DNA of 5,934 bases from a virus (taxonomy: Duplodnaviria; Heunggongvirae; Uroviricota; Caudoviricetes): the IMG/VR virus record IMGVR_UViG_2526164609_000027; one strand, 5' to 3'. The notes beneath the pieces were generated by a model, which did no database searches, was not told where the DNA came from, and saw nothing but the letters and a program-made list of their open reading frames with translations. Numbering within the stretch: position 1 is the first letter of the stretch; each line of letters opens with the position of its first letter. Below are positions 1-5,934 of the stretch, in pieces. The position numbers and the translations under genes were made by a program.

Positions 1-225
1 AACGCCCATAATGCGTGCAGTTGCCCGGCATCCAACGCCATTCATGGCCATATCAATAATTTTCTGGTGCGTACCGGGTTGAGAAGCGGTGTAAGTGAAC
101 TGCAGTTGCCATGTTTTACGGCAGTGAGAGCAGAGATAGCGCTGATGTCCGGCAGTGCTTTTGCCGTTACGCACCACCCCGTCAGTAGCTGAACAGGAGG
201 GACAGCTGATAGAAACAGAAGCCAC
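1..225 (-). CDS. insA: IS1 InsA (transposition inhibitor / N-terminal transposase part), 3'-truncated by window edge
   Basis: GTG start at 225-223 (minus). Reading frame translates without stops to [75 protein letters not shown], matching InsA as I recall it. The track ORF 42..254 (-) is the overlapping -1 frame, not the real gene. Confidence 0.85.
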
Positions 226-257
226 TGGAGCACCTCAAAAACACCATCATACACTAA

Positions 258-280
258 ATCAGTAAGTTGGCAGCATCACC
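258..280 (-). repeat. IS1 terminal inverted repeat (IRL, about 23 bp)
   Basis: Sequence ggtgatgctgccaacttactgat on the minus strand; this is the outermost IS1 end and marks the insertion junction at 280/281. Confidence 0.8.
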
Positions 281-517
281 AAGGCGAGCTTCATTTAACG
301 CCTTACGCAGTTGCAGAATTTCAGATTCCAGTTCAGCCACCGTGCGGGAACCAGGAGTACCGAGCCCTTTTCTGGCGGCGGTAACCCATTGTCCTAAAGT
401 GCCTTCAGGAAGGGATAATCGGGAAGCGCCTTCACTGATCGAAAGTTGATTTTCAAGAACCGTTCTGACAGCTTCGGCTTTGAACTCTTTAGAGTAACGT
501 TGGTTTTTTCTGCTCAT
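281..517 (-). pseudogene. IS3-family transposase OrfA (HTH + leucine-zipper part), truncated by IS1 insertion
   Basis: Translation MSRKNQRYSKEFKAEAVRTVLENQLSISEGASRLSLPEGTLGQWVTAARKGLGTPGSRTVAELESEILQLRKALNEARL has the HTH-then-heptad architecture of IS3-family OrfA. In the track ORF (254..517) the last 8 residues GDAANLLI and the stop are encoded by the IS1 terminal repeat, so the native ORF is cut at 280/281. Confidence 0.7.
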
Positions 518-571
518 TATTAGCTCCTTCTGATGCCATTCTATTTCAGGAAGGAGTGTCCGTTAAACTCA
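281..571 (-). mobile_element. IS3-family insertion sequence remnant (outer end plus 5' part of orfA), interrupted by IS1
   Basis: orfA-like ORF preceded on the minus strand by a leader beginning TGAGTTTAACGGACAC..., with an AAGGAG RBS 7 nt before the ATG. The TGA-initial terminus is typical of IS3-family IRs; boundary at 571 is inferred, not verified. Confidence 0.5.
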
Positions 572-802
572 GGCTACCTCACTGTTCGCGTTGCTGTTGT
601 GGCCGACGTTTGTGGTGTCAGCCAAAGAGCAATCTATAAATGGATGGATAACGGAAAATTGCCTCGCACAGAATATACCGGCGAAACAAATTACGCTGAA
701 AAAATCGCTCTTGCATCAAACGGATTATTTTCTGCCGATGCAATTTTAACTATTGGCAGGAATAAAACTACTACGAAAAAGCTGATGGGAGTTGATTCAT
801 GA
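533..802 (+). CDS. Cro/CI-type HTH DNA-binding protein (YdaS-like, Cro-like); start uncertain, 5' end possibly disrupted
   Basis: 89-aa ORF containing an HTH-like segment VADVCGVSQRAIYKWMDNGKLP, immediately upstream of and overlapping (ATGA) the YdaT-like gene, as in the Rac ydaS-ydaT arrangement. The ATG at 533 lies inside the predicted IS3-family terminus and has no SD; in-frame alternatives are GTG 599 and ATG 644, neither with a good SD. Confidence 0.5.
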   Translation: MPFYFRKECPLNSGYLTVRVAVVADVCGVSQRAIYKWMDNGKLPRTEYTGETNYAEKIALASNGLFSADAILTIGRNKTTTKKLMGVDS

Positions 803-1224
803 AAATCAAGCATGAACACATCCGCATGGCGATGAATGCCTGGGCGCATCCGGACGGCGAAAAAGTACCGGCTGCGAAAATTACCAAATCGTATTTCGAG
901 CTGGGAATGACGTTCCCGGAACTGTATGACGACAGCCATCCGGAAGCCCTGGCTCGCAATACTCAGAAAATTTTCCGCTGGGTGGAGAAAGACACCCCTG
1001 ATGCGCTTAAAAAAATTCAGGCGTTGTTACCAGCTATCGAAAAAGCAATGCCACCTCTGCTGGTGGCCCGAATGCGCAGCCATAGCTCAGCCTATTTTCG
1101 GGAACTAGTGGAGACGCGGGAACGACTGGTGAGAGACGCTGATGATTTTGTCGCAGTGGCGATCGCTGGTTTCAACCAGATGAATCGTGGTGGCCCTGCA
1201 GGAAATATTGTGGCTGTGCATTGA
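799..1224 (+). CDS. ydaT: YdaT-like protein (CII-like regulator family of Rac-type prophages)
   Basis: 141 aa, begins MKIKHEHI and ends ...GNIVAVH, matching in length and at both termini my recollection of E. coli Rac YdaT (about 140 aa). Start ATG 799 overlaps the upstream stop (ATGA); GGGAG lies 8-12 nt upstream. Confidence 0.8.
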   Translation: MKIKHEHIRMAMNAWAHPDGEKVPAAKITKSYFELGMTFPELYDDSHPEALARNTQKIFRWVEKDTPDALKKIQALLPAIEKAMPPLLVARMRSHSSAYFRELVETRERLVRDADDFVAVAIAGFNQMNRGGPAGNIVAVH

Positions 1225-1295
1225 CTCGCAATATTCATACCGGATCACTTCCGGCAATTTGTGAGTAAAAAGATTCGGTATCAAAAGAGGTGAGT

Positions 1296-2366
1296 ATGGC
1301 TAACGCCTGGCTCAGATTATGGCATGACATGCCAAATGACCCTAAGTGGCGAACAATTGCCAGGGTGTCAGGGCAGCCAATTGCAACAGTGATGGCAGTG
1401 TATATCCACCTCCTGGTGAGCGCGTCACGAAATGTCACGCGAGGTCACATTGATGTCACGACAGAAGATTTGGCAAGTGCGCTCGACGTGACAGAAGAGG
1501 TAATTGATTCAATTTTGCAGACGATGCAGGGGCGGGTACTTGATGGTGATTTAATCACTGGATGGGAAAAACGCCAGGTGCTGAAAGAGGACAACGGCAA
1601 TATTCCGCAAACCGCAAAATCTCCTGCAGAGCGCAAGAGGGCGCAGCGAGAGAGGGAAAGAAAGCGGGAACAAAATGGCGATTGTCACGGCGCGTCACGA
1701 TATGTCACGCACATGTCACGACGAGTCACGACAGATAAAGATACAGATAAAGATACAGATCAAGAAGATCAAAACACTATGGTCCATGGCGTAAAAAACG
1801 CCACGAACCAGGCAGGGGATGTTCAGACCGTCAATCCTGGTCAGCCAGCAGGCACGACACCGGAAGCCGATTCAGCGTATGCGCTGAAAGCCGATTCGGG
1901 CGCTGTGCAGCAGGTGATGACCGCAAGTCCGGAGCAATCACACCAACTGCAGCAGCCTGAAGCCGATTCCGCCATTCAGCGGGAAGCCGATCGGGTAGTC
2001 CCGGAAAACACCGGGCAGTCTGTGGGACGAGTGGATTATCCGGATGTGTTCGAACAGGTCTGGCGGGAGTACCCGTTGCGTGCCGGGGCAAACCCGAAGA
2101 AATCCGCTTTCAGTGCCTGGAAGGCCAGATTACGCGAGGGGGTGCCACCAGAGGCCATGCTGGATGGCGTGAGGCGTTACGCAAGATACCTGGCGGCTAC
2201 CGGGAAAACGGGAACGGAATTTGTTCAGCGAGCGACGACGTTTTTTGGACCGGACCGGAATTTTGAGAACCCCTGGTTGCTCCCGGTAAGCGGCACGAAC
2301 AACCAGCGTTGTGTGAATCATATTTCTGAACCGGATAGCGAAATTCCGCCGGGCTTCAGGGGGTAA
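1296..2366 (+). CDS. Phage replication initiation protein with DnaT-like (primosomal protein I-like) C-terminal domain
   Basis: Long ORF directly after the cro/cII-like pair. Likely start is ATG 1296 (MANAWLRLWHDMPNDPKWRTIARVSG...) with AAGAGG SD at 1284-1289; the track's GTG 1290 abuts the SD. The C-terminus ...NHISEPDSEIPPGFRG closely resembles the C-terminal tail of E. coli DnaT as I recall it (...SEPDSQIPPGFRG). An acidic low-complexity linker (DKDTDKDTDQEDQ) sits mid-protein. Confidence 0.85.
   Translation: MANAWLRLWHDMPNDPKWRTIARVSGQPIATVMAVYIHLLVSASRNVTRGHIDVTTEDLASALDVTEEVIDSILQTMQGRVLDGDLITGWEKRQVLKEDNGNIPQTAKSPAERKRAQRERERKREQNGDCHGASRYVTHMSRRVTTDKDTDKDTDQEDQNTMVHGVKNATNQAGDVQTVNPGQPAGTTPEADSAYALKADSGAVQQVMTASPEQSHQLQQPEADSAIQREADRVVPENTGQSVGRVDYPDVFEQVWREYPLRAGANPKKSAFSAWKARLREGVPPEAMLDGVRRYARYLAATGKTGTEFVQRATTFFGPDRNFENPWLLPVSGTNNQRCVNHISEPDSEIPPGFRG
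1421..1460. repeat. Iteron cluster 1: four direct GTCAC(G/A) repeats at 10-11 bp spacing (putative initiator binding sites)
   Basis: GTCACG at 1424, 1434, 1455 and GTCACA at 1444; an inverted copy CGTGAC at 1487-1492. Lies within the N-terminal coding part of the replication gene. Confidence 0.6.
1681..1730. repeat. Iteron cluster 2: five direct GTCACG repeats at 10-11 bp spacing (putative ori core)
   Basis: GTCACG at 1684, 1694, 1704, 1715, 1725. The hexamer falls in all three codon phases, so the repeat is at the DNA level rather than a peptide repeat. The cluster resembles cluster 1 over about 45 bp (both end gtcacgacaga). Confidence 0.65.
1731..1770. repeat. Tandem 12-bp repeat (acagataaagat x2 plus a degenerate third copy) with two GATC sites, directly after iteron cluster 2
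   Basis: acagataaagat at 1731-1742 and 1743-1754, then acagatcaagaagatc; GATC at 1758-1761 and 1767-1770. Encodes the acidic DKDTDKDTDQEDQ linker. Flagged as A-rich by eye, not computed. Confidence 0.55.
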
Positions 2367-2386
2367 GTGTTAATTTCTGGTCATGA

Positions 2387-2402
2387 GGTAATTTTCAGGA
2401 GG
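2387..2402 (+). promoter_or_regulatory. Conserved translation-initiation motif GGTAATTTTCAGGAGG (SD-containing), copy 1
   Basis: Exact 16-mer shared with 2803-2818; AGGAGG ends 4 nt before GTG 2407. Confidence 0.55.
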
Positions 2403-2406
2403 GCTT

Positions 2407-2829
2407 GTGGCAAAAGTTTTTACACAAGAAGAGCGGGAAAAAATTAAAGGGCAGGTTCTTGAACTCGTACGCCAGAGTGGGCGCGAGACGTTACGACAAC
2501 TGGAAGCTAAAACTGGGGCAACAAGATATCTGATGAGCGTTCTGGCCAGAGAGCTGGTTGCCAGTGGCGATGTATACAACTCTGGTTACGGGTTATTCCC
2601 GTCTGAACAGGCGCGTAAGGACTGGCAAAATGCCCGTAAAAAGCTCTCAAGGGCAAAGCTGAAGAAACCATCTGCGGTTGATCCGGACCTTATCTGGTCA
2701 TTACCTGACGGAGAAATACGTCGCTACGACAGTCGCCTAAACATAATCTGTCGCGAGTGCCGGAAGAGCGAAGTTATGCAGCGCATATTGTCGTTTTATC
2801 AGGGTAATTTTCAGGAGGTGATGGCGTGA
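2407..2829 (+). CDS. Hypothetical protein, possibly winged-helix-like DNA-binding N-terminus (function unknown)
   Basis: 140-aa ORF with GTG start 2407 preceded by AGGAGG at 2397-2402. The N-terminal segment LELVRQSGRETLRQLEAKTGATRYLMSVLARELVASGDV looks winged-helix-like by eye; a basic central stretch (RKKLSRAKLKK) follows. No family recognised. Confidence 0.65.
   Translation: MAKVFTQEEREKIKGQVLELVRQSGRETLRQLEAKTGATRYLMSVLARELVASGDVYNSGYGLFPSEQARKDWQNARKKLSRAKLKKPSAVDPDLIWSLPDGEIRRYDSRLNIICRECRKSEVMQRILSFYQGNFQEVMA
2803..2818 (+). promoter_or_regulatory. Conserved translation-initiation motif GGTAATTTTCAGGAGG, copy 2 (inside the 3' end of the upstream gene)
   Basis: Identical 16-mer to 2387-2402; AGGAGG at 2813-2818 is 7 nt upstream of GTG 2826. 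Confidence 0.55.
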
Positions 2830-3131
2830 GGGTGAGAGTCTATATCGCCGGTCCAATGACCGGGTATAAAAATTTCAACCGTGAGGCGTTTCACAATGCG
2901 GAAGAGGAACTGAAACGGGAAGGGCATACCGTCTTAAACCCGGCAGTACTTCCGGACGGGCTGACACAGCCGCAGTACATGGATATCTGCATGGCGATGA
3001 TTCGTTGTGTGGATGCGATTTACATGCTGAAAGGCTGGCAGCGGTCAGCAGGCGCTAAGGCAGAACTGGCGCTGGCGGAGAAACTGGGGCATGCGGTGAT
3101 TTTTCAGGAGACAGCCAGTGTGCAAGACTAA
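2826..3131 (+). CDS. DUF4406-family protein (nucleoside 2-deoxyribosyltransferase-like Rossmann fold)
   Basis: 101-aa ORF with N-terminus VYIAGPMTGY...F and a C-terminal motif GWQRSAGAKAELALAEKLGHAV, recognised by eye as the DUF4406 / NDT-like pattern with a conserved Glu. GTG start 2826 overlaps the upstream stop (GTGA); GTG 2832 is an alternative. Confidence 0.75.
   Translation: MRVRVYIAGPMTGYKNFNREAFHNAEEELKREGHTVLNPAVLPDGLTQPQYMDICMAMIRCVDAIYMLKGWQRSAGAKAELALAEKLGHAVIFQETASVQD
3098..3110 (+). promoter_or_regulatory. Conserved translation-initiation motif GATTTTTCAGGAG, copy 3 (inside the 3' end of the upstream gene)
   Basis: Shares the core TTTTCAGGAG with the two 16-mer copies; AGGAG at 3106-3110 is 7 nt upstream of GTG 3118. 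Confidence 0.5.
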
Positions 3132-3573
3132 TTACCAGGCATTACGTGAACGTTATTCACCAATTCAGGTGCCGGAATGTCCTGTTTGTGGCGATGAAAT
3201 GTCGATACAGCGCATATTTTCCAGAACGCATATTGTGTATGCCTGCACAGGTGAGGGGGATGATGGATATTTTAAAACTGGTCGAACTTTTGCGGATGAG
3301 CATTACCTGAAATCGCGCGTAACCGTCGTTGATGTTAGCGATCCTGACGTACTGGCTTTACTGAAAGAGCTGGAAGTTAAAGACAAACGCATTGCAGAAT
3401 TGACAGATGCGCTTACACAAATGATTAATGCGCACAAAACCACAATTCGTTTTGGTCATGAACGCATAACTGAATGTGGTGGTGATTGCGACTCGCCGGA
3501 AAAGATGATTTCAGAAAATCCGGATATCAGAATGGCAGAGGCTGTTTTGAGAGCAGGAATAAAAACTGAATAA
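3118..3573 (+). CDS. Hypothetical Cys-rich protein (putative zinc ribbon plus coiled-coil segment), function unknown
   Basis: 151-aa ORF with GTG start 3118 overlapping the previous gene by 14 nt. Contains CPVCGDEM...(16 aa)...C and ECGGDC motifs and a heptad-like stretch LALLKELEVKDKRIAELTDALTQMI. Alternative starts GTG 3166 and ATG 3199 lack a good SD. Stop at 3571-3573, 12 bp before the IS66-family end. Confidence 0.6.
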   Translation: MCKTNYQALRERYSPIQVPECPVCGDEMSIQRIFSRTHIVYACTGEGDDGYFKTGRTFADEHYLKSRVTVVDVSDPDVLALLKELEVKDKRIAELTDALTQMINAHKTTIRFGHERITECGGDCDSPEKMISENPDIRMAEAVLRAGIKTE

Positions 3574-3622
3574 TTAAATTTAGCAGTAAGCGTGTAGCAA
3601 GAACCGTATTGACGGGGATGTG

Positions 3623-5161
3623 TTATTCAGTCGGCAGTGCTACGCGCCAGGGGAGCAGTTCGCCGACCCGGTTTATCGGCCAGTCGGCTATGACGTCAAG
3701 TACATAGCGGAGGTAGCTTTCTGGCTCCACTCCGTTCAGTTTGCACGTCCCGATCAGGCTGTACAGCAGCGCTCCCCGCTCTCCTCCATGATCCGAACCG
3801 AAGAACAGGTAGTTTTTGCGGCCCAGACTGACCATCCGCAACGCATTTTCAGCGATGTTATTGTCCGCCTCAGCCCAGCCATCATCTGCATAGTACGTCA
3901 GCGCCGGCCACTGGTTCAGGGCGTATGCGAACGCTTTCGCCAGTTCTGAGTGTCGCGACAGGGTTTTCATCTTTTCACGCAGCCAGCTTTCCAGGGATTT
4001 CAGCAGCGGTTTCGTTTTCAACTGACGTTCGGCAAGGCGCTGCTCCGCCGTCATTCCCCTTATCTCTGCCTCGATGGCGTACAGTTCGCCGATCCGTTTC
4101 AGCGCTTCCTCCGTCAGGGCTGACGGGGTGCGAACGTGCACATCGTGGATTTTACGGCGGGCGTGAGCCCAACAGGCGGCTTCCGTTATCCGGCCATCCC
4201 GGTACAGCTCGTTGAACCCGGCGTATGCATCCGCCTGCAGTACACCACTGAACCCCGCAAGATGGGTCTGCGGATGGATGCCTTTTCTGTCCGGGCTGTA
4301 AGCGAACCACACCGCCGGCGCCAGCGTTGACCCGGCGTTACGGTCGTCACGAACGTAGGTCCATAACCGCCCGGTCTTCGTTTTCTTATTGCCTGGCAAC
4401 AGCACCGGGACAGGCGTGTCATCAGCATGGAGCTTACCGTCAGTCAGCACATAGTCCTGAAGCGCTTCTTCCAGCGGTGACAGTAGCCGGCAGCATGCAT
4501 CCACCCAGCCCGACAGCAGTGAACGACTCAGCTCCACGCCCTGGCGGCCGTACATTTCAGACTGGCGGTACAGCGGGGTGTGCTCTGCATACTTTGAGAT
4601 CAGCACGCGGGCCAGCAGCCCCGGTCCTGCGATACCCCGCTCGATGGGCCGTGAAGGCGCGGGGGCCTGCACGATGGCATCGCACTGAGTACAGGCATGC
4701 TTTTCACGTACAGTCCGGATAACCCGGAAGACGCTGCGCATCAACTCCAGCTGTTCGGCGGCATCCTCACCCGGATAGCTCAGTGAGCCTCCACATTCCG
4801 GGCAGCATGACGCTGCCGGCAGCAGCCGTTTTTCATCGCGGGGGAGTGATTCGGGGAACGGTTTGCGGGTGCGGGTTTGACGCAGCGGGCGCTGCACGGC
4901 CGGGTCGTCAACCCGACCGGTAAGGGTATCACTTTCTTTCTGAAGTGCCTTCAGGTCAGCTTCCATCTGTGCGATACGACGGGAGACTTTTTCGGAGCGG
5001 CTGCCGAAGTTCATCCGGCGCAGCTTATCCAGCTGTGCCTGCAGATGGTCTATTTCGCGTTCACGCTCGTTCAGCTTTTCCAGCAGGGCACGGTTCAGCG
5101 CCTCCTGTTCGGCAAGGAGACGTTTCAGTGCATTGATATCGTCAGGAAGTGAGCTGCTCAT
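3623..5161 (-). CDS. tnpC: IS66-family transposase TnpC (DDE transposase with N-terminal coiled coil and zinc-binding motif)
   Basis: 512-aa ORF. N-terminal coiled-coil-like stretch ([26 protein letters not shown]...), CxxC...CxxC motif (CCPECGG ... CTQC), then a long catalytic region; size and architecture as in IS66 TnpC. Confidence 0.9.
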
Positions 5162-5209
5162 ACCGGGTATATTACCAGGCTCATTCAGCGTCGACCAGGA
5201 TAAAGAGGC

Positions 5210-5557
5210 TTACAACATAGTCAGGGACGTAAGCAGTCTTTTAGGCTGCCGCCAGTCGATACCTTCAAGGAGCATCGCCAGCTGTGCCGGTGTGAGGAAC
5301 ACTTTGCCATCCCGGGCTGACGGCCAGGCGAAGCGGCCGCGCTCCAGCCGTTTGGTCAGCAGACACAGTCCATCGCCGGTAGACCAGAGGAGCTTTACCT
5401 GACTGCCATTACGCCCACGGAAGATAAAAACGTGACCTGACATCGGAGCGTCTTTCAGCGTCGTCTGCACCTTTGCCGCCAGGCCGTTGAAGCCATTTCT
5501 CATATCGGTGATACCGGCAACCAGCCAAATTTTGGTCCCGGAAGGTAACGGGATCAT
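5210..5557 (-). CDS. tnpB: IS66-family accessory protein TnpB (Orf2)
   Basis: 115 aa, MIPLPSGTKIWLVAGITDMRNGFNGLAAKVQ...LAMLLEGIDWRQPK, matching the IS66 Orf2 pattern (e.g. ISEc8 ...IWLVAG.TDMR..FNGL...) as I recall it; ATG overlaps the tnpA stop (ATGA). Confidence 0.9.
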   Translation of the reverse strand: MIPLPSGTKIWLVAGITDMRNGFNGLAAKVQTTLKDAPMSGHVFIFRGRNGSQVKLLWSTGDGLCLLTKRLERGRFAWPSARDGKVFLTPAQLAMLLEGIDWRQPKRLLTSLTML

Positions 5558-5934
5558 CGCTTCAGTTCCTGTATCAGCAGAGTCAGGAGCTTTTCGCTGA
5601 CATTGCCATTAAAGCGGAGCGTCCCGTGCCGGAACGTTACCTCACAGCTGATACTGAGGGTTTCCGGATCCTCTGCGAGCGATTCTGGCTGTTCGGCAGC
5701 TGCATCGAGAGTCACAGGAAGTAGCTGGGGGCTCTCTGAAGAAGGTAATAGCAGCTTTCCCTCGCGCCATTGTTGTCGCCATTTGAACAACAGATTGGCG
5801 TTAATGCCATTTTCAAGAGCAAGTTTTGAGATGGATATCCCGGGTTCACAGGAGGCAGCAACGAGCTGCTGTTTAAATTCGGGAGGATAATTAGGGCAGC
5901 CTTTTCGCCTGCCGGGATTCACATTTTTCTGCAT
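5554..5934 (-). CDS. tnpA: IS66-family accessory protein TnpA (Orf1, HTH); possibly 5'-partial at window edge
   Basis: 126-aa ORF with an HTH-like segment (PEFKQQLVAASCEPGISISKLALENGINANLLFKWRQQW) in first position of the IS66 gene triad. Its ATG is the last three bases of the window, so the true start could lie further out. Confidence 0.8.
   Translation of the reverse strand: MQKNVNPGRRKGCPNYPPEFKQQLVAASCEPGISISKLALENGINANLLFKWRQQWREGKLLLPSSESPQLLPVTLDAAAEQPESLAEDPETLSISCEVTFRHGTLRFNGNVSEKLLTLLIQELKR

Follow-up and report, generated by a model that had tools for sequence, protein, structure and literature searches.

Three copies of a repeated motif are probable translation initiation regions of consecutive GTG-start genes in an IS-flanked prophage remnant

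Three copies of a short repeated motif probably form the translation initiation regions of lygF, a DUF4406 gene and an ead/Ea22-like gene, three consecutive members of one polycistronic early operon, as judged from the sequence and its relatives. The copies lie in a stretch of 5,934 nt of viral DNA (IMG/VR virus record IMGVR_UViG_2526164609_000027), referred to in its full length as the window. In the arrangement that we propose, each copy places a Shine–Dalgarno (SD) sequence, AGGAGG or AGGAG, 4–7 nt ahead of a GTG codon and behind a short U-rich tract of the initiation-enhancing type. Copy 1, within a leader of about 25–30 nt, travels with lygF. Copies 2 and 3 occupy the final codons (NFQE and IFQE) of the gene before them, so that ribosomes ending lygF could restart at an overlapping GTGA, and fresh ribosomes could bind at the strong SD itself as well. 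Each tail would thereby hold a start signal for any following gene, and single genes could be swapped and still be expressed. The mechanism is a textbook one, in which a mosaic prophage operon combines a predicted SD with an A/U-rich tract and overlapping start and stop codons; the signal is of an ordinary kind and opens no new mechanism.

The motif copies lie in a block of prophage early genes on the plus strand (584–3580), which is an IS-flanked remnant of a Rac/lambdoid-type prophage. The features of the block are the following:

Plus strand, first gene of the early block: cro/dicC-like HTH gene, truncated
799–1224, plus strand: YdaT-like gene of the early block
1296–2366, plus strand: O-like replication initiator gene (phrog_3729 'replication initiation protein', E=5e-255)
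2387–2402, plus strand: motif copy 1, GGTAATTTTCAGGAGG, in the intergenic lygF leader; AAUUUU tract and SD AGGAGG, 4 nt to GTG 2407
2407–2829, plus strand: lygF (DUF977), GTG start; Pfam PF06163, E=3e-30, residues 1–136; phrog_142
2803–2818, plus strand: motif copy 2, GGTAATTTTCAGGAGG, in the lygF 3′ tail, codons G-N-F-Q-E; predicted ribosome-binding site of the DUF4406 gene
2826–2829, plus strand: GTGA start/stop overlap (−4) of lygF and the DUF4406 gene
2826–3131, plus strand: DUF4406 gene, nucleoside 2-deoxyribosyltransferase-like, GTG start; Pfam PF14359, E=9e-38; phrog_355
3098–3110, plus strand: motif copy 3, GATTTTTCAGGAG, in the DUF4406 3′ tail, codons V-I-F-Q-E; SD AGGAG, 7 nt to GTG 3118
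3118–3131, plus strand: 14-nt overlap of the DUF4406 and ead genes
3118–3573, plus strand: ead/Ea22-like gene, GTG start; Pfam PF13935, E=2e-20, from residue 4

The O-like gene starts at ATG 1296, with position 1 of the phrog_3729 profile aligned to ORF residue 3, and its stop codon (2364–2366) leaves a gap of 40 nt to the lygF GTG; copy 1 begins 20 nt past that stop. Clusters of a GTCACG iteron-like repeat lie within this gene at 1424–1462 and 1684–1732 and probably mark the prophage replication origin, embedded in the initiator gene as in lambda, and a 36-nt imperfect direct repeat (1860–1895 versus 1956–1991, 75% identity) encodes PEADSA-type repeats in its low-complexity linker. The PHROG name for the lygF family is 'Ren-like exclusion protein'; nothing relevant to function was found in the literature on lygF.

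On its left the block is bordered by an IS1 fragment together with an IS3-family element, and on its right by an IS66-like ISEc22 element. The IS1 fragment (about 1–270, minus strand) is nested within the IS3-family element (window 1–583; orfA 254–517, minus strand; element end at about 581–587), which removes the 5′ end of the cro/dicC-like gene. ISEc22 (about 3583–5934) carries tnpC (3623–5161), tnpB (5210–5557) and tnpA (5554 to past 5934), all on the minus strand; it starts directly past the ead stop and stands in place of a hypothetical gene, hokD and the rest in the prophage of E. coli FDAARGOS_944. The FDAARGOS_944 prophage, 99.9% identical to window 2250–3585, also has an extra minus-strand gene for an 'ECs1072 family phage-associated protein' between its ydaT-like and replication genes (locus L001, 1470–1928), which the window lacks. 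E. coli SE11 likewise has the identical locus.

The original prediction placed the 16-mer GGTAATTTTCAGGAGG at 2387–2402 and 2803–2818 and a third copy at 3098–3110, each 4–7 nt ahead of one of three consecutive GTG codons, with copies 2 and 3 inside the 3′ ends of the preceding genes and FQE near both C termini. All of these positions are correct on direct reading. The motif ends 4, 7 and 7 nt before the GTGs at 2407, 2826 and 3118, and the ORF translations agree, LygF ending in ...QGNFQEVMA and the DUF4406 protein in ...AVIFQETASVQD, reading ...VIFQETASVQD, with the codons of copies 2 and 3 inside these tails. The core TTTTCAGGAG, of which the third exact copy is at 3101–3110, has three exact copies and four matches at ≤1 mismatch, against 0.47 expected at ≤1 mismatch, a count equalled in 0/200 dinucleotide-preserving shuffles; the 16-mer occurs twice against 0.03 expected, and 0/200 shuffles reach two. 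The tract directly 5′ of the SD is A/U-rich in every copy, reading GGUAAUUUUC twice and GAUUUUUC once. The repeated motif is real and non-random.

Comparison with relatives confirms GTG 2407, 2826 and 3118 as the predicted starts of lygF, the DUF4406 gene and the ead/Ea22-like gene. Each is the earliest possible start in its ORF, the Pfam and PHROG profiles start at residues 1–4 of all three ORFs, and RefSeq annotation of the FDAARGOS_944 locus uses the same three starts. Relatives of lygF in other upstream contexts have ATG at the codon of GTG 2407. In the DUF4406 gene, the conserved YIAGPM motif starts five codons past 2826, and the sole nearby alternative start, GTG 2832, is GTA in phage Rac-SA53 (L003). 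Relatives of ead have ATG, within an ATGA overlap, at the codon equivalent to GTG 3118, four codons ahead of N-Y-x-A-L-R. The chief value of the analysis is annotation, with three GTG start codons fixed and start-codon calling aided in thousands of E. coli and Shigella prophages.

The motif copies have the properties of SD sequences, pairing with the 16S rRNA 3′ end at spacings of 4, 7 and 7 nt from supported starts. Predicted duplex energies are −10.8 kcal/mol for copy 1 (lygF), −17.7 kcal/mol for copy 2 (DUF4406) and −7.4 kcal/mol for copy 3 (ead), and energies this strong occur in just 3–11% of 22-nt windows of the phage part. In copy 2 the SD extends to AGGAGGUGAU, 10 contiguous base pairs complementary to the 16S 3′ end, and the SD of copy 3 is of moderate strength. 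The 80-nt regions round the three starts show no more folding than their shuffles do (z = −0.67, +1.45 and +1.03), the unstructured state expected of open initiation regions. The reading of the motifs as ribosome-binding regions holds up well on this evidence: predicted SD pairing, no sequestering structure and starts that agree with relatives. An A/U-rich tract upstream of the SD raises initiation, acting in co-operation with a strong SD (PMC2176067), and such enhancers are effective within the 3′ end of the preceding cistron too (PMC3592434). GUG was as good as AUG in one reporter system (PMC3592434); the weak GTG starts and the possibly equimolar translation of the original prediction are speculative or doubtful.

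Other kinds of signal at the motif were considered and rejected. No family matched the locus at E≤1 in an Rfam search and the folds equal those of shuffles, which dismisses a known RNA family or structure; no promoter-like or terminator-like site was found on the plus strand between the genes, which dismisses a promoter or terminator at the motif. Programmed frameshifting at the T-run was likewise rejected: the sequence lacks an X XXY YYZ heptamer, its SD-like element follows the T-run instead of preceding it, and the only frameshift seen is a mutational 1-nt loss. That loss, in the tail T-run of phage Rac 442/2 (L006), shifts the LygF C terminus to GNFRRLCGEQH.

The further proposal that all three junctions are translationally coupled stands as plausible for lygF and the DUF4406 gene and falls short at the other two. 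Gene pairs on the same strand and one transcript that overlap by −4 or −1 nt, or lie within −8 to +6 nt, have coupling geometry; the −4 ATGA/GTGA overlap is the commonest in prokaryotes, and the −8 to +6 nt window is taken as indicating termination–reinitiation (PMC10666635). The GTGA at 2826–2829 has this geometry, but the O/lygF (+40 nt) and DUF4406/ead (−14 nt) junctions fall outside it. Because 40 nt separate the O-like stop from the lygF GTG, coupling at this junction is unlikely and copy 1 is probably an independent initiation site. In −4 overlaps with an SD, output was about 2-fold that of a cistron on its own, with upstream translation needed for half (PMC3592434). The degree of coupling here, like any enhancer role of the U-tract, is something that we infer.

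The motif is conserved in homologous cassettes, a check called for with the original prediction. About 4,200 E. coli records carry lygF. Scanning IMG/VR for the 16-mer gave at least 141 occurrences among the matches listed, comprising about 88 leaders upstream of lygF, about 50 lygF 3′ tails and 3 chance matches; because the occurrences listed sit there, the 16-mer appears peculiar to the two flanks of lygF rather than a signal found in phages at large. A scan of genome contigs for distant homologous cassettes returned only Escherichia, Shigella and MAG records bearing the names of other genera (13 loci). Among the latter, Collinsella, Bacillota and Veillonella MAG contigs (L293, L295, L297, L298) carry lygF loci >90% identical to Escherichia ones and are most likely mis-binned Escherichia prophage DNA.

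Copy 1 belongs to the leader of lygF itself, of which a homologous 25–30 nt recur after three or more different upstream genes. The leader follows the pattern ..TGA(A/G)G(G)T(A/G)ATTT(T)(T)CAGGAGG(G/A)(C/T)TT-(A/G)TG ahead of lygF, and its core is retained behind the O-like gene, a DnaC-like loader, whose TAA stop lies inside GTAATTTC, and another replication protein. In the ydaW context the leader is without the T-run, and the SD-proximal part alone is kept (GATTGCCGGAGG). The T-run is a slippage-prone homopolymer, and leader alleles carry 3 to 6 T (L056, L089, L016).

Copy 2 belongs to the lygF tail, which in relatives is followed by N7-GTGA whatever gene comes next and precedes at least five unrelated downstream genes. 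These include DUF4406, Ead, a methylase, an 88-aa gene, decayed Ead N termini and a 137-aa gene; the last has a GTG or ATG start abutting the lygF stop instead of GTGA. In many relatives (L002 2577–2994; L299–L302; L025) the GTGA past lygF opens an ORF of just 27–40 aa (VSEISYQASITAG...), which looks like a decayed Ead N terminus, and the actual gene of 137–155 aa (MKLAIRLQLPLAF...) lies in another frame, with GTG or ATG abutting the lygF stop. Where no co-directional gene lies downstream, the tail is without an SD and without a T-run (for example CAGGGGGATGTTCGGTATTTATTGAAGTGA), and the protein ends in GDVRYLLK, QG and similar. Across 71 distinct lygF 3′ junctions, which are phylogenetically non-independent, a strong tail SD is associated with a co-directional ORF further along (39/4 versus 5/23; p=4e-10 by Fisher's test). 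The weakened tail SDs CAGAAGG and CAGGATG (about −7 kcal/mol; L138, L176, L203) occur only before Ead remnants without an ORF ≥60 aa, consistent with relaxed selection once the downstream gene is dead; a milder allele, CAGGACG (−8.8 kcal/mol), is found ahead of an intact methylase ORF.

Copy 3 belongs to the DUF4406 tail, which is followed by at least five different genes. Its alleles in 80 DUF4406 loci are ATTTTCCAGGAG (43), ATTTTTCAGGAG (28), ATTTATCAGGAG (8) and one other, so that the exact TTTTCAGGAG is present in just 28/80 loci against 43/80 with the synonymous TTC form. The T-run of copy 3 sits in V-I-F codons, and part of it is dictated by the protein, because V-I-Y is also found in the distant DUF4406 homologue of phage D6. 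On this comparative evidence, the lygF and DUF4406 tails would each carry the ribosome-binding site for whichever gene comes next.

What the motif holds beyond the SD calls for separate consideration. The original prediction described a conserved, extended ribosome-binding region, and for the extended part we find no detectable extra constraint. Over 105 distinct alleles of the leader, the fraction identical to the window allele is 0.79 in the T-run and 0.78 in the SD, compared with 0.75 at codon position 3 and 0.91 at positions 1+2; because the exact leader motif is conserved at the level of synonymous sites, selection on its extended part is not demonstrated. At the same time, one leader allele is identical to the lygF tail at 16/16 positions and another, GGTGATTTTTCAGGAG, to the DUF4406 tail of the window at 16/16 positions. 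This identity beyond the SD exceeds functional need and most likely reflects an old junction duplication plus selection for the SD and A/U-rich tract over Phe/Ile codons.

The repeat could instead be purely a historical accident, in which an old duplication or illegitimate joining copied a junction, the T-rich sequence reflects Phe/Ile codons and the U-tract is without function. The leader conservation at the level of codon position 3, the variable T-run length, the ydaW-context leader without a T-run, and the V-I-F or V-I-Y codons of copy 3 with their common TTT/TTC flip all speak for this reading. So does the likeness between the flank of copy 1 and the DUF4406 tail: the 24 nt ending in copy 1 (2378–2401) match the tail (3087–3110) at 20/24 positions, a result reached in 1/2000 shuffles. 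Read in the O-gene frame past the stop, these nucleotides give GHEVIF against GHAVIF in DUF4406, and the likeness may be a coincidence or an old junction duplication. We nevertheless consider an accident rather unlikely. The TTTCAGGAGG core survives at both lygF ends in a lineage of just 73% protein identity, the tail T-run decays jointly with the SD where the downstream gene is absent (GATGTTCGGTATT), and A/U-rich tracts are experimentally established enhancers (PMC2176067, PMC3592434). The idea that the O–lygF spacer is a relic of a DUF4406 3′ end also failed: the longer similarity (repeat D13, 2307–2325 versus 3003–3021) is not significant (173/1000 shuffles), and the spacer is instead the leader of lygF, found behind other upstream genes too.

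The same excess identity, at three consecutive initiation regions, is the one observation that would favour reading the 16-mer as an operator through which a trans-acting translational regulator, a protein or sRNA, co-regulates the three genes. This is highly improbable, as the locus has no Rfam match and no conserved structure, the alleles vary freely, a candidate regulator is lacking and, among the matches listed, the motif is specific to the lygF and DUF4406 flanks, a distribution that is not regulon-like.

The junctions marked by the motif are also the places at which related prophages diverge. When the window is aligned by BLAST with phages and with E. coli genomes, the alignments stop at the motif sites. 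In a comparison with 172 loci, picked by protein similarity or annotation, alignment ends cluster at 2810–2829 (67) and 3110–3119 (59), and alignment starts at 2400–2409 (24) and 2820–2829 (13). Similarity would break at these positions because the tails carry the start signal of the next gene, permitting swaps. The 6–7 nt spacer between SD and GTG tracks the upstream gene, reading TG.TG.. past lygF and.CA.CCA past DUF4406 whichever gene follows; therefore crossovers fall at or just past the start codon, in the shared GTGAG, and not within the motif.

Such a pattern raises the question of whether the 16-mer is itself a recombination linker, used by phage recombinases of the RecET/Red type for in-frame insertion, deletion or swapping of single-gene cassettes. 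Red reportedly promotes recombination between diverged sequences, and the mosaic breakpoints gather at the three junctions. DUF4406 is a facultative cassette, with Ead and VSESKCQV genes following the lygF tail or the DUF4406 tail alike; the alleles cross-match between sites; and the same short sequence meets differing flanking genes, the leader three upstream and the tails at least five downstream each. Conserved gene-boundary sequences have been proposed as recombination targets (PMC3974807). Against these points stand the SD–GTG spacers, which place crossovers at or past the start codon and not inside the sequence, and the constancy of the leader, as lygF follows all 88 leader copies among the matches listed. 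Exact scans of all IMG/VR contigs returned zero matches for each of the three predicted inter-copy recombinants (leader joined to DUF4406, tail joined to the lygF start and tail joined to an ead-type spacer); parental junctions in IMG/VR numbered at least 120 and at least 600 stretches in two scans. Recombination between motif copies was likewise rejected with chimeric BLAST queries, which matched only the intact arrangement, as two joined pieces. A stretch of 16 nt is, moreover, short for homologous recombination. We therefore regard a linker as improbable.

A related idea, for which we see a very slim chance, is that GGT(A/G)ATTTT(T)CAGGAG(G) is a portable junction module, a tail ribosome-binding site plus GTGAG into which genes are plugged by short-homology recombination (RecET/Red). 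If this were true, Rac-like prophages would plug single genes into the early operon with coupled expression kept, in the manner of an integron-like cassette system without an integrase.

The reading of the motif copies as initiation regions, which we prefer, sets the locus beside three known systems. The first is the E. coli SD ribosome-binding site with an A/U-rich enhancer of the ribosomal protein S1 type, which it resembles in having AGGAGG or AGGAG 4–7 nt ahead of the start, AAUUUU or AUUUUU immediately before the SD, and unstructured regions; it differs in that the U-tract is just 4–5 nt long and is coding in copies 2 and 3, and an enhancer effect is inferred. The second is −4 overlap coupling by termination–reinitiation, matched by the lygF/DUF4406 GTGA with its SD 7 nt upstream, a geometry kept ahead of several different downstream genes; the DUF4406/ead overlap of 14 nt and copy 1, behind its 40-nt gap, depart from it. 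The third is the mosaic module boundary of lambdoid phages. Here too similarity breaks at junctions and the same junction sequence has differing flanking genes, but unlike at the conserved boundary sequences proposed for these phages, crossovers lie at the start codon and no inter-copy recombinants were found. The pattern fits the standard view, in which recombinants are retained if their junctions stay functional, better than it fits a targeting linker, and it illustrates clearly why the breakpoints of phage mosaics coincide exactly with gene junctions.
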